Assembly: GCA_023250205.1 (NCBI GenBank)
Contig: JAHFBE010000003.1
Location: 1-56,450, forward strand
Source: Candidatus Melainabacteria bacterium
GTDB lineage: Bacteria; Cyanobacteriota; Vampirovibrionia; 2-02-FULL-35-15
Reading direction: 5' to 3'
Length of the DNA stretch: 56,450 nucleotides
Shown: positions 6,132 to 55,217 of the stretch, piece by piece
How positions within the stretch are numbered: the first letter of the stretch is position 1
Layout of the letters: each line of letters begins with the position of its first letter
The notes under the pieces: model-generated
Told to the model about the DNA's origin: nothing
The model's database searches: none
Seen by the model: only the letters and a program-made list of their open reading frames with translations
Position numbers and translations under genes: made by a program

Positions 6132-8317
6132 TCTCTAAATCCTTCTTTAAGATTATTTGCAAATTTTAATATATTGTTCTTTATTTCTTCAGTAACTTTT
6201 TTTGCATTTTCAACAGCATCTTCAAGAGCTTCTTGTTTAGACTTCTTAGCTTCTTCCATTTGTTTTTGCTCGGCTTTAGCTTGTTCTTCAGCAGCTTTCT
6301 TTGCATTTTCAATAGCTTCTTGTTTAGACTTCTCAGCTTCTTCCATTTGTTTTTGCTCGGCTTTAGCTTGTTCTTCAGCAGCTTTCTTTGCATCTTCAAT
6401 AGCTTCTTGTTTGGATTTCTCAACTTCTTCGGCTTGTTTTTGCTCAGCTTTAGCTTGTTCTTCAGCAGCTTTCTTTGCATCTTCAATAGCTTTTTGTTTG
6501 GATTTCTCAACTTCTTCAGCTTGTTTTTGTTCAGCTTTAGCTTGCTCTTCAGTAGCTTTTTTCTTGGCTTCTTCCATAGCATTTTTTATTGCTTCTATGG
6601 CTTGTTTGATATTTCCTTGATTGTTACTAGCAGTGTTTAAGACTTCTGGTATTGAAGGAAGAGGATTAGCCATTATGACTGGCTGAGTAGTGGTAGTAGT
6701 TGCAGGAAGAGGATCAGCCATTATGATTGGTTGAGTGGTAGTAGTAGTTGCAGGAAGAGGATCAGCCATTATGATTGGTTGAGTGGTAGTAGTAGTTGAA
6801 GGAAGAGGATCAGCCATTATGATTGGTTGAGTGGTAGTAGTAGTTACAGGAAGAGGATCAGCCATTGTAGTTGGTTGAGTTATTGTGTTTGCAGGAGAAG
6901 AAGAACTGATATTTGTTATTACTGGACTTGGGGATGGATTAAAATTAATTACAGTTGGGATTTGGATAGTGTCTGTTGAAGTTGTTGAAGCTGTAGTAGT
7001 TGGCTTATTAGATGCATTATTATTTGAAGGACTATTGGACATAGAGCCTCCAGTATCCAGATTTAAAACAACATTATTATCAGAGGTAATGCTTCCTGTA
7101 GGTGCAATATATAAACCTCTAAGAATAGGTGGATTTTCCAGATCATTTGTAGTTAATCTTATTCTTAATTGAATATTACTGCTTGGAGCTATATGAAAAT
7201 TTTGAAATGTAGGAGTTCCATCTCCAAAAGTCTCTATGGTGGATTTAAGTTTGTTTTGTTTGTCTTTTTCTGCAGAATAGATTAGGATATTTTGTTTATA
7301 TGATTCAGTGGTGTATAAACCTAGTTCACAGCCATTTAAGCAGAGACTCATATCAGGGTTTAAATAAAACTCAAGTCCATTGCTTCCCTTTGGTCCTGCC
7401 ATTCCTTGTAAAACTTTGAAATTATAAAAATCTTTATTTTTTAGTGATAATGGGAACTCATAACCAGTTGATGTTGCATACTTAATCATGCCTACACTTA
7501 ATTGAACTAAATCATCATTTTCTGATTCTTCTTTTGATCTTGGCGACCATATTACTGTACTGGAATCAACTCTTTGAGACCAGGTAGGTGCACTTACTTT
7601 CTCAGGTCCAACATAGGTAATCCTTAAATCACTTTCTCTTCTTGGTTCACTCCAAAAAATGCCACTGATCGCTGCTTTAGAATTGTCCTGTGGAGCTATT
7701 TCAATTGTTAGTGTTCCAACTGAGCGAGGATCGGGTGATTTTACTAATAAGTTTAAATAACAACCAACTTTAAATTTTGTATTTTGAATATAAGTAATAT
7801 CTCCTAGAGCACTATTTGCATAAGATAGTTTTAATTTAATTTGTTCAGCAGGATTATTAATAACAAAGGGATCAAAATATAAATTTAATGGGATCCAGGT
7901 AATGAAATCATTATTGTTTTGTAAATCTATCATTATGGAAAGAGTTTCTCCATCAAGTGAAGAAGATAAATAATATTTATTTCTTTCACCATTTTTAGAA
8001 GCACTTTCTGGAGTACTTATACTAATTGAGCTGCTTTCCTGAATAACACCGGAGTAAGTTAGGTTTGTTATATATGGAGGTAATTTTGTTTGCGTATTTG
8101 ATGGGTCAGCAAGCCAATAATATGAATACTCTGTACTCCATGCTCCGTTTAAATCACAATTTGTTTTTGGGGCTGATTCCTTTATATATGATGGATTTAG
8201 GTAAGTAGCATTTGAAATTTCTGGGGCAGTTTGAGCTAATACTTGGCCAGTACAAACTGCTGTAAGCAATAAAAGAATGTATAAGATATTTAAGTTTGAC
8301 TTTGTTTTAGTTTGCAT
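6128..8317 (-). CDS. Secreted hypothetical protein with a Thr/Pro-rich linker and a TolA-like Lys/Glu/Ala coiled-coil tail
   Basis: 729-aa ORF with an N-terminal signal-like segment (ILYILLLLTAVCTGQVLA) and two internal repeat arrays. Confidence 0.75.
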   Translation of the reverse strand: MQTKTKSNLNILYILLLLTAVCTGQVLAQTAPEISNATYLNPSYIKESAPKTNCDLNGAWSTEYSYYWLADPSNTQTKLPPYITNLTYSGVIQESSSISISTPESASKNGERNKYYLSSSLDGETLSIMIDLQNNNDFITWIPLNLYFDPFVINNPAEQIKLKLSYANSALGDITYIQNTKFKVGCYLNLLVKSPDPRSVGTLTIEIAPQDNSKAAISGIFWSEPRRESDLRITYVGPEKVSAPTWSQRVDSSTVIWSPRSKEESENDDLVQLSVGMIKYATSTGYEFPLSLKNKDFYNFKVLQGMAGPKGSNGLEFYLNPDMSLCLNGCELGLYTTESYKQNILIYSAEKDKQNKLKSTIETFGDGTPTFQNFHIAPSSNIQLRIRLTTNDLENPPILRGLYIAPTGSITSDNNVVLNLDTGGSMSNSPSNNNASNKPTTTASTTSTDTIQIPTVINFNPSPSPVITNISSSSPANTITQPTTMADPLPVTTTTTQPIIMADPLPSTTTTTQPIIMADPLPATTTTTQPIIMADPLPATTTTTQPVIMANPLPSIPEVLNTASNNQGNIKQAIEAIKNAMEEAKKKATEEQAKAEQKQAEEVEKSKQKAIEDAKKAAEEQAKAEQKQAEEVEKSKQEAIEDAKKAAEEQAKAEQKQMEEAEKSKQEAIENAKKAAEEQAKAEQKQMEEAKKSKQEALEDAVENAKKVTEEIKNNILKFANNLKEGFRD
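6216..6564 (-). repeat. Four intragenic 87-bp repeats (KKAAEEQAKAEQKQ[A/M]EExEKSKQEAIEDA)
   Basis: The 29-aa unit appears 4 times in the translation; the DNA copies are near-identical. Confidence 0.9.
6654..6880 (-). repeat. About five intragenic 48-bp repeats (QPIIMADPLPxTTTTT)
   Basis: ggaagaggatcagccattatgattggttgagtggtagtagtagtt recurs every 48 nt. Confidence 0.9.
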
Positions 8318-28891: not shown

Positions 28892-28964
28892 GCCGATGTA
28901 GCTCAGTTGGTAGAGCAAGTGCTTCGTAAGCACTGGGTCGCAGGTTCAATTCCTGTCATCGGCT
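28892..28964 (+). tRNA. tRNA-Thr(CGT), CCA not encoded
   Basis: gccgatg/catcggc acceptor stem, agctcagttggtagagc D-arm, agtgc-ttCGTaa-gcact anticodon arm, ggttcaattcc T-loop. Confidence 0.95.
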
Positions 28965-29085
28965 TGAAAAAGATTTTAAGCGAAGATTTTCTGAAAACGA
29001 AAATCTGAGCGTAGTGAAGGAAGTAGACTGTAGATCTGTGCAAAGCTGATTTTAGTCTCTGCTAAAATCAGCGGTGTATAAAAAC

Positions 29086-29137
29086 AGCAAGTGCTTCGTA
29101 AGCACTGGGTCGCAGGTTCAACTCCTGTCATCGGCTT
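29086..29137 (+). repeat. 52-bp direct repeat of the tRNA-Thr 3' part (att-like duplication or pseudo-tRNA)
   Basis: Matches 28914-28965 with one mismatch (aattcc vs aactcc). Confidence 0.92.
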
Positions 29138-29144
29138 TGAAAAT

Positions 29145-53424: not shown

Positions 53425-54861
53425 TTAATGATTTAAAGAGTAGTCACTATGGTTTAAAAGGGTTCCGGGAACATTGTCTTTTAAACTAACAAGCCAGTTT
53501 TTAATAAAGTTCAAAGCTAAACAATCATCATGATTATATTCAATACTTAAGTCTAAGTATTTCTTGTCTTTTGTTTCTAAATAGCTGCTATACCAGCACA
53601 TTGACTGTATTGCGTTTGCGTCTTTATTTCTCCATTTAAATCCAAGTGTTTTTGCAATATTTTTCAATGAATAGCTACTGACTGGTAATATTACTGAATC
53701 TCTGACTATCTTTTCAACATTGATTAAATTTACTTTTGGAAGATGTTTCCATTTTTCTTCAAAGATTGATTGTTCGTAATGTCCGTAGTGATAAAAAGTA
53801 TAATCTTTATGCTTATCTAAAAAATTAGCCAGATCATTTGAAAGTTGCTCTTCTGATTCTTCTAGTAGTAAAGAAATAAATTCACTTTTTTCTCCAGTAA
53901 TTTTTAATAGTCCAGCCAGATAATCAATTCTTAGTAGCTCAGTCCCTTTTTCATTTAGAACCATATCACTTTCAAAATCTATGTAGATCTCTTTTTCCTC
54001 TTGTTTTATTTCAGGAGTAGATTTTATGTAAATCTTTTTTTCTTTTAGGCATTTTGCTTGTATTAATACTGTTTTCTTTTTTTCTCCTGCTAATTCTTCT
54101 ATTTCAGAGAAATCATCTTCTGTGCAGTTTGCCAGCTCTGCATAATTTTTAATTGGAATATTTAAAAGCTTTTCTTTTAGTTTTTTATTTATGCCATATA
54201 TTAATGATAAATCCTCTTTTTTATTTGCTTCTGGGAGGCAAACGTTATACCACTGACAGGTTTGACAATTTGAATCTATAAATAAATCAGGCATAGATTC
54301 AGGATCATTTAAGATTTTTCTGCTTTCAATAATTCCATTAATTACCTGTTTCATTAATGAGTAAAAATGCTTAATCTGCAAATCCATATCAAGAAGTAAA
54401 AGCCCACCGTACAAAGGGGTAAATCCTTGAATCTCTCCAAGTAGATATGAATAACAGGCAAGTTGGAATAAATATCGCTCTCTTGATGTTGATGCACTTT
54501 TAACATCAACAGGATAGTAATAGTAATCACCAAGCAGTGAGTGTCCAGGGGCTTTGATTAGAAAATCAGGAATCCCCCGGAGATCATCGTTTTTTAAGAC
54601 CCCCTGATAAATAGTTTCAACACCAGCTTTCATAAACTTTAGTGTTTCTTCAAGCCCTTTTTCGTAATCTCCAATTTTATATTTGGGTTTTTCATATTGA
54701 AAGAAATCTATAACATTTGACTCATAGGTGCGTCCAAATTTCCATAAGCGCTTTAAAAAATCACTTGGTGCAAGTTCTAGATTTTTGTCACCATATTGAT
54801 TTAAAAAAAGAAGCCTTGGGCAGCGATAATAATTTAATAGCTCTGAAACGCTAAATTGCAA
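53425..54861 (-). CDS. TM0106 family RecB-like nuclease with C-terminal RNase H-like domain
   Basis: YYRCPR, IYQGVL, GIPDFL...VDVKS, QLACYS, CxxCxW..VC, YIDFE, YSLKNIA..LGF.W, YNHDDC; TTG start. Confidence 0.9.
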   Translation of the reverse strand: MQFSVSELLNYYRCPRLLFLNQYGDKNLELAPSDFLKRLWKFGRTYESNVIDFFQYEKPKYKIGDYEKGLEETLKFMKAGVETIYQGVLKNDDLRGIPDFLIKAPGHSLLGDYYYYPVDVKSASTSRERYLFQLACYSYLLGEIQGFTPLYGGLLLLDMDLQIKHFYSLMKQVINGIIESRKILNDPESMPDLFIDSNCQTCQWYNVCLPEANKKEDLSLIYGINKKLKEKLLNIPIKNYAELANCTEDDFSEIEELAGEKKKTVLIQAKCLKEKKIYIKSTPEIKQEEKEIYIDFESDMVLNEKGTELLRIDYLAGLLKITGEKSEFISLLLEESEEQLSNDLANFLDKHKDYTFYHYGHYEQSIFEEKWKHLPKVNLINVEKIVRDSVILPVSSYSLKNIAKTLGFKWRNKDANAIQSMCWYSSYLETKDKKYLDLSIEYNHDDCLALNFIKNWLVSLKDNVPGTLLNHSDYSLNH

Positions 54862-54862
54862 A

Positions 54863-54889
54863 CTACTTTCCTAATCTTCGGTGAAATGC
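54863..54889 (-). repeat. Imperfect duplicate of the last nine codons of the 55011-55217 ORF (both read AFHRRLGK*)
   Basis: gcatttcaccgaagattaggaaagtag versus gcatttcacagaagattagggaaataa, 148 nt apart. Confidence 0.8.
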
Positions 54890-55010
54890 TTCTTTATAAC
54901 GCTCGGTGACTGCTACGCAGATCACTTCGCTATTTTTCTGTAGCGTGACACCGACGTTGCGGTTTGTCGTATATGACAAACCTCTACTTGATTCCATTAA
55001 AACACCCATA

Positions 55011-55217
55011 TTATTTCCCTAATCTTCTGTGAAATGCATTGAAAGATTGCCCTGGGTTTCCACCTTTTGATTTCCCTGGATTTGAGAACTGCTGAAAAGG
55101 TTTTGGTGGTGGAGGCTGAAATCCTTTTTTCTTGTTTTCTGCATTTGTTTTATTTTCTGTATTTGTTTTATCCTGTGGATTGTCTTTTTGACGTTTTTGA
55201 TCTTTATTTGCTGACAT
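55011..55217 (-). CDS. Small basic low-complexity protein (68 aa)
   Basis: aaaggaa SD; K/Q/N/P-rich; ends FNAFHRRLGK. Confidence 0.6.
   Translation of the reverse strand: MSANKDQKRQKDNPQDKTNTENKTNAENKKKGFQPPPPKPFQQFSNPGKSKGGNPGQSFNAFHRRLGK

Follow-up and report, generated by a model that had tools for sequence, protein, structure and literature searches.

The small gene orf68 of a Candidatus Melainabacteria bacterium is followed by a second copy of its own 3' end, set behind a structured repeat, and there is about an even chance that this second copy is not a working gene end but the end of the same gene from another, functional allele, which recombination would have joined to the 3' edge of the repeat. 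The repeat, element E, belongs to a dispersed family with two conserved hairpins, and other members of this family are likewise followed by a duplicated end of the gene upstream. The orf68 locus lies on the minus strand of the window, by which we mean the whole 56,450-nt stretch of contig JAHFBE010000003.1 that was analysed (Table 1).

Table 1. Coordinates of the features of the orf68 locus and of its sister case behind tRNA-Thr, given in positions of the window.
Feature	Coordinates	Strand	Description and basis
orf68	55011..55217	-	68-aa ORF from the ORF list; upstream gene with duplicated end; small basic protein
t1, translated orf68 tail	55011..55037	-	AFHRRLGK + TAA; sequence
Element E, 121-nt copy	54890..55010	-	two-hairpin repeat family; nhmmer, covariance model R1 and folding
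Hairpin 1 of E	54961..54982	-	GGTTTGTC, 6-nt loop, GACAAACC; sequence, folding, covariation over 108 copies
Hairpin 2 of E	54906..54925	-	GTGA-T-CTGC, GTA loop, GCAG-TCAC; alignment A2, RNAalifold, covariation
t2, second copy of the orf68 tail	54863..54889	-	AFHRRLGK + TAG; adjoins the 3' end of E
48-aa ORF across E and t2	54863..55009	-	ORF list; most likely fortuitous
Downstream nuclease gene	53425..54861	-	478 aa, TTG start; PD-(D/E)XK/Cas4-like and RNase_H_2-fold
tRNA-Thr(CGT)	28892-28964	+	sister case in the same window, 28892..29139
E copy behind tRNA-Thr(CGT)	~28965-29087	+	R1
Copy of the 3' 52 nt of tRNA-Thr	~29088-29139	+	repeat of the tRNA end

The translated tail of orf68 (t1; GCA TTT CAC AGA AGA TTA GGG AAA TAA) recurs as t2 (GCA TTT CAC CGA AGA TTA GGA AAG TAG), 148 nt away from start to start and with 121 nt in between. 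A sequence-only reading had drawn attention to this recurrence and to its purely translation-neutral differences, and reading both 27-nt copies bears it out: they differ at four positions (10, 21, 24 and 27), three of which are synonymous changes (AGA/CGA, GGG/GGA and AAA/AAG) and one a stop-to-stop change (TAA/TAG), and both read AFHRRLGK*. An equally good repeat (27 nt, at most 4 mismatches, less than 300 nt apart) occurred in none of 300 shuffles of the 1.3-kb region, and four random substitutions in these tails would all be translation-neutral with a probability of 0.001–0.006. The synonymous-only divergence of the two tails is a real pattern that needs an explanation. Three of the eight sense codons differ between t1 and t2, and 30–45% of the identical-residue codons differ when species of the same genus are compared; judged by these codon counts, the divergence of the tails is close to the synonymous divergence between species of the genus to which the window genome belongs. 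Furthermore, t1 is a single nucleotide away from the orf68 tails of one family genome (G003) and one metagenome locus (L137), and t2-like codon choices (CGA, GGA AAG, TAG) are present in relatives without E at this site (L129, L134 and L135).

Homologues of orf68 are found in all 12 family genomes (E-values 1e-10 to 1e-29) and at 10 metagenome loci, and the protein, which has no Pfam match, is rich in lysine and glutamine and measures 58–68 aa across the family. The downstream gene encodes a nuclease that matches PF13482 (3e-27) and, weakly, PF01930 and PF12705. Its TTG start lies 2–16 nt after the orf68 stop in most relatives and 1 nt after t2 in the window, and orf68 and the nuclease look like a translationally coupled pair of unassigned function.

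In the copy of E between the two tails, a core (54989-54890) with GCGTTATAAAGAA as its last bases is preceded by a 21-nt 5' extension (55010-54990). Across the family, E measures about 95–125 nt and reads, from 5' to 3', AAGYGARG, hairpin 1, a variable linker, AATAGC, hairpin 2 and an A-rich 3' end (GCGTTATAAAAA). The insert is indeed richer in GC than the window (43% vs 33%), and the 8-bp hairpin that had been pointed out in it is present (54982-54975 / 54968-54961). A covariance model (R1), built from 15 same-locus and other-locus copies, matches the orf68-site copy (54890-54989, minus strand) over its full length (80.1 bits, E-value 1.4e-12), nhmmer aligns this copy to model positions 1-93, which is the whole model (E-value 3.6e-14), and its folding z-score is -2.8. 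RNAalifold predicts 20 pairs for the 15 copies, 14 of them with compensatory changes, and among 108 distinct copies from six genomes double (compensatory) changes occur at 19 of the 20 pairs. Standard pairs make up 92.9% of the pair cells of these 108 copies, vs 73% after shuffling and at most 49% with the partners slid, figures that are somewhat favoured by an alignment that had been fitted to the model. The 114 G.U cells outnumber the 46 A.C cells, and this excess favours folding of the strand on which the downstream gene is read. Such sense-strand folding is as expected for RNA or for strand-specific single-stranded DNA.

E most likely acts as an RNA inside the transcript of the gene that it precedes, and it is probably a mobile small structured repeat; it may provide the downstream gene with a leader, with a site of processing or with a -10-like box. 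A consensus scan found no sigma-70 promoter in the orf68-site copy, with no conserved -35 element and only a TATAAA-like 3' end. An intrinsic terminator was rejected because neither hairpin is followed by a U-run on the sense strand. A known RNA family was rejected as well, as E has no gathering-score match in Rfam 15, the best score on the insert region being that of the T-box (12.5 bits vs a gathering score of 93), and the whole window yields only tRNA matches.

The family was found by a genome-wide search with both inserts of the window, which gave partial matches at numerous loci, and by iterated nhmmer. The second insert, behind tRNA-Thr(CGT), is matched by R1 with 45.1 bits (E-value 2e-5), and the parallel between the orf68 layout and the tRNA-Thr duplication, proposed from the letters alone, holds in that both inserts are copies of E. 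Aligning them and searching the genome, as had been suggested, identified the two as homologous members of one dispersed repeat family, and at a locus on contig C61, after tRNA-Leu(CAA), the 5' block of the one insert (tRNA-Thr) is joined to the 3' block of the other (orf68). The weak tataaa-N-agca junction that the two inserts had seemed to share stands in its first half, since 'tataaa' is the conserved 3' end of E, and falls in its second, since each duplicated gene end simply happens to begin with 'agca'.

Iterated nhmmer finds 22 copies in the window's own genome (G000), and R1 finds between 0 and 64 copies in the 12 family genomes (G003 64, G011 29, G000 and G002 19 each, G009 12, G004 and G008 none). 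R1 has no match at E-values of 1e-9 or below in 129 genomes taken from 10 further families of the same class, and on these searches E is specific to this groundwater Melainabacteria family. Among 75 full-length copies, the 3' end of E is followed 32 times by a gene start on the same strand and twice by a gene end on the opposite strand, and the start codons mostly lie 1–13 nt past this end; the flank before E is a gene end in 13 cases and a divergent gene start in 12. In G000, tRNA genes are touched by 7 of the 22 copies. E points into genes: its A-rich 3' end normally precedes, by a few bases, a start codon or the 5' end of a tRNA. As an undescribed structured element in this position, it may affect the expression of many housekeeping genes. 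As a separate observation, the tRNA-Ala(TGC) gene of contig C81 (15386-15675; L014) lies between two inverted copies, one of which points into its 5' end and the other of which abuts its 3' end, tail to tail, and tRNA-Trp on contig C49 has an inverted copy at its 3' end.

The presence of E is polymorphic at the orf68|nuclease site. E is absent from both same-genus genomes, from six further family genomes that keep the gene pair and from several metagenome loci, in all of which the orf68 stop is followed by the nuclease TTG within 2–16 nt, and in E-less relatives a single orf68 tail lies 2–3 nt before the same TTG. Seven of the 10 metagenome loci have the pair with an empty site, two have another downstream neighbour, and one (L137; contig Ga0209515_10061314, 1681-1825) carries E at the same site. 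The E of L137 belongs to the same subfamily as the orf68-site copy, with a near-identical hairpin 1 and an R1 score of 64.2 bits, and no t2 follows it; its nuclease starts with an ATG immediately after the TATAAAAA of E, whereas E-less relatives use TTG. The nuclease can therefore follow E without any second tail. Searches by sliding-window identity and synonymous-codon counts detected no mosaic breakpoint in orf68 or the nuclease, because the sampled relatives, all at species-level distance, are too diverged (30–45% of synonymous codons differ), and no donor allele for t2 was found among them. The E-less site of G003 (L018) contains an extra 'cc aggaaagtaa tt' within the 16 nt that separate the orf68 stop from the nuclease TTG; these bases resemble the end of the window's t2 (aggaaagtag) and may be the remnant of a lost E and tail, or a small local duplication.

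Duplicated gene ends recur across the E family. About 19 of 144 distinct copies from seven genomes (~13%) are followed by a second copy of the upstream gene's end, truncated at its 5' side, the background of the gene-end repeat scores being at most 10. This second copy is 17–90 nt long (41–55 nt in the tRNA cases) and starts 5–13 nt past ...GCGTTATA, directly at the A-rich end of E. At least 15 different genes have their ends duplicated in this way, among them tRNA-Thr and tRNA-Leu (two kinds each), tRNA-Lys and tRNA-Met (two genera each), and the protein genes fusA (four genera, in two of which the E-like variants fall below the R1 threshold), glmS, gyrB, orf68 and five others.

The differences between the gene ends and their second copies resemble those between alleles. 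In 12 protein tails, 39 synonymous, 2 non-synonymous (I/V and D/G) and 5 stop-to-stop changes were counted, with boundary codons excluded and orf68 read in the AFHRRLGK frame, and 2 of the 12 tails are identical to their second copies. If 30% of changes are expected to be silent, the 39:2 excess has a binomial p of ~1e-18 to 2e-18. All six changes in glmS of G003 are synonymous, and fusA of G005 has seven synonymous changes and one stop-to-stop change. Similarly, the second copies of tRNA-Lys in G011 and G006 have their own correctly paired T stems with compensatory stem changes, and their acceptor strand fits a different 5' strand, of a type seen in G002; by their sequence, these copies are coherent alternative alleles.

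The sequence-only reading had taken the synonymous-only pattern to suggest that both tails are translated, and the 48-aa ORF to which it pointed is present in the ORF list. This ORF, which has the C-terminal FHRRLGK in common with orf68, would then be a genuine small gene or an ORF for coupling. It is open through E, its ATG lies 1 nt after the orf68 stop, its own stop lies 1 nt before the nuclease TTG, so that it could relay translational coupling, and the tail differences at orf68 are synonymous only. However, the ORF is a singleton with no homologue among 5.8 billion proteins and no Pfam match, and about 10% of E-by-frame combinations are free of stops by chance. Among the seven loci that were checked, an ORF leads into the second copy only at orf68 and in one fusA case; at the five others (glmS, gyrB, C9, L077 and L120), the frame is closed by stops within E and has no start codon, and yet the same synonymous-only pattern is found. 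Furthermore, the frame of t2 relative to E varies between loci, L137 has E at the same site without t2, and the duplicated tRNA ends, which display the compensatory RNA equivalent of the pattern and to which translation is irrelevant, would be left unexplained. The frames at the seven loci, the share of frames open by chance and the lack of a homologue rule out second-tail translation as a general explanation, and a translated 48-aa ORF at the orf68 locus is very unlikely. Synonymous-only divergence at second gene ends flanked by E must not be counted as evidence of translation. At E sites, spurious small ORFs and pseudo-tRNAs will appear in the output of annotation pipelines.

With middling confidence we propose, as the simplest process, that E-bearing and E-less versions of the orf68|nuclease region from diverged lineages recombined, homologously on one side and non-homologously where the homology stops at the edge of E. 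Both tails would have evolved in working genes before this event, which would be why their differences are synonymous only, and since these differences built up while both were in working genes, t2 would be a copy of another allele. After the event, orf68 would use t1, and t2 would retain its native close spacing to the nuclease TTG (1 nt, and 2–16 nt in relatives). Either t1 and E were imported and the resident tail was displaced downstream, or an E-less fragment anchored in the nuclease brought its own tail (t2) and the nuclease 5' end to a resident E. The direction was addressed in the tRNA Arg-Leu-Lys cluster of four genomes (G000, G002, G011 and G006), where the second tRNA-Leu copy of G002 and its downstream flank look native, being collinear with tRNA-Leu and its flank in G000, an arrangement that is compatible with either direction. 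Many of the affected upstream genes are highly conserved (the tRNAs, fusA in four genera, glmS and gyrB), and these are sequences still able to recombine between diverged lineages. Gene conversion between the two tails was rejected as the cause, as it would erase the observed synonymous differences. If the proposed import of an allele is correct, the short second copies are fossils left when diverged lineages within an uncultured group recombined, located at genes that are still similar enough to recombine, each with a datable allele.

By analogy, the closest described mechanism is 3'-end displacement, and the closest described layout is that of the E. coli tRNA-linked repeats (TLRs). In Rhs and T6SS effectors, displacement of the 3' end has been proposed to occur via homology-facilitated illegitimate recombination (Jackson et al. 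2009; Kirchberger et al. 2017, PMC5361080), in which the incoming DNA is anchored in the conserved part of the gene and the old 3' end is pushed downstream as an orphan; this type of recombination is reported to be rare (PMC5361080). The displaced ends of these effectors are kilobase-scale and comprise different toxins and immunity genes, whereas in the E cases 17–90 nt that encode the same peptide are invariably joined to the 3' edge of a single small repeat. Both ends should come from working alleles in such a displacement, and this is the signature of the protein tails (39 synonymous, 2 non-synonymous and 5 stop-to-stop changes) and of the compensatory tRNA-Lys alleles. In the TLRs, 18–19 nt of the 3' end of an upstream stable RNA are repeated after a spacer (Egan & Landy 1978; Rudd 1999; PMC8144298). 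As at E, the repeated unit directly follows a tRNA or rRNA gene and has a copy of that gene's 3' end as its own last part, and it is dispersed over several loci and of unexplained origin. The tRNA cases at E fit this layout, with 41–55 nt repeated; the orf68 locus involves a protein gene, and its sequence is unrelated to curated families. TLRs differ in that they repeat 18–19 nt of stable-RNA genes only, while the E cases repeat 17–90 nt, include protein-gene ends, and have one conserved two-hairpin spacer and allele-like copies, with no Rfam-level sequence relation.

Several features of the family bear on the age and upkeep of the second gene ends. The junction between E and the second copy falls in the same fusA codon (EPII...) in three genera, for tRNA-Lys and tRNA-Met it occupies one and the same position of the tRNA in the two genera concerned in each case, and the second fusA copies (G000_C36, G001, G005 and G007; L185, L187, L191 and L192) always encode the tail variant of their own genome (T/S, K/R). 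On contig C9 of G000 (7700-8000; L010), an 84-nt near-perfect gene-end duplication (…WWHYNHRDCEQYEILDIPIEEIK*) surrounds E, and its second tail is followed by an apparent collapsed or decayed second E (the first 18 nt, then TATAAAG), which suggests a tandem duplication of tail and element. Junctions common to several genera suggest that some of the structures formed by E and a second copy are old, and an old untranslated copy should have decayed unless it was repeatedly overwritten, was under selection in place, or arose from events that recur at preferred positions. The match between second copies and the tail peptide of their own genome fits close donors and in-place selection equally. The shared junctions, the own-genome tails and the tandem appearance of C9 keep rival explanations alive and hold the confidence in an imported allele at about one half.

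There is a tentative possibility that E is a new small mobile leader RNA element that spreads, or is maintained, via homology with the upstream gene end, and that the second copies are actively maintained, by overwriting or selection, and are not passive scars. A minicircle or a cDNA of the gene tail and E might, for example, integrate by a single crossover. Active maintenance of the second gene ends would explain both the cross-genus junctions and the own-genome tail peptides.

It is unlikely that E transposes with a long and variable target duplication (17–90 nt), with E and t2 kept by a function such as that of a native upstream region, a processing signal of the next gene or a tRNA-like 3' end. 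Perfect or near-perfect duplications would fit such transposition (65–84 nt at C9, 52 nt with one mismatch at tRNA-Thr, and 41–52 nt in the tRNA cases of G002 and G003), as would the junctions common to several genera for fusA, tRNA-Lys and tRNA-Met and the native spacing that t2 retains to the downstream start, and the repeated 3' end in TLRs is thought to matter for processing (PMC8144298). However, selection on an untranslated upstream region would not produce codon-periodic differences with a 39:2 synonymous excess, the nuclease of L137 lies directly behind E without t2, and about 87% of the E copies have no duplication at all. In addition, the second copy at L077 of G003 has no co-oriented gene start behind it, with no start codon in the next 140 nt, whereas the orthologous second copy in G002 has one after 13 nt. 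A target-site duplication of the usual transposon or MITE kind was rejected in view of the 17–90 nt length, the allele-like differences and the lack of convincing terminal inverted repeats in alignment A2 of E. Restriction-modification genes have been described as inserting with long target duplication (Furuta et al. 2010, PMC2853133), and there, too, an insert lies between direct repeats far longer than the target duplication of a transposase. These inserts are whole genes, and allele-like synonymous divergence of the repeats does not figure in the part of that description considered here.

Mobilisation by a RAYT/IS200-like transposase, as for REP and REPIN sequences, was rejected because Y1_Tnp matches do not track the copy number of E. 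The PF01797 matches are weak; they are lacking in G011 and G009, which have 29 and 12 copies of E, and present in G008, which has none, and contig C29, which carries the PF01797 match of the window's own genome, has no copy of E. E resembles REP, BIME and REPIN sequences as a short, GC-richer, hairpin-forming extragenic repeat of variable copy number with compensatory change, but its two hairpins follow each other in direct and not inverted order, its 3' end is fixed and A-rich, and it is directed into gene starts (32 to 2). To our knowledge, REPs do not flank copies of gene ends.

Genomic islands can use the 3' end of a tRNA or protein gene as their integration site, and leave an intact gene, an insert and a displaced variant 3' end. 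The layout at E is the same, with direct repeats of a gene 3' end around an insert and a replacement end that keeps the gene intact, and the repeats might be the attL and attR sites of a tyrosine-integrase island that brought a gene-end copy of its own and afterwards lost its interior. Yet the interior of the insert is a complete, conserved member of a 95–125-nt repeat family and not a random remnant, and at least 15 target genes with variable repeat lengths are affected, where one integrase would have one target. Among relatives, no larger island was found at the orf68 site, which is either empty or occupied by the same small element. The 56-kb contig carries no tyrosine recombinase gene, the seven PF00589 matches of the genome all lying on other contigs. 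Such a scar is very improbable, and an integrase att scar or cis-mobilizable element was rejected on the absence of a recombinase from the contig and the many targets; att-site duplications differ from the E cases, in which a 121-nt insert from a dispersed family occurs without an integrase.

Three further observations were made in the course of the survey. fusA occurs once in each relative, but the window's own genome has two fusA 3' ends (C36:2284-2644 and C7:74044-74391), whose protein sequences share only 88% identity. A partial E lies behind each of them, a second tail is found at the C36 copy only, and C36, a 2.6-kb contig, may have been binned in error or may represent a second haplotype. 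At C61:151-440 (L002) of the same genome, E is followed by a second tRNA-Leu(CAA) copy with an extra GC-rich insert of ~33 nt in the T-arm region. Finally, the order of a tRNA cluster is Arg-Lys-Leu in G000 (C53:34327-34665) and Arg-Leu-Lys in G002, G011 and G006 (L122, L161 and L065), where E and a partial tRNA copy follow the cluster, and this rearrangement seems to be linked to E.
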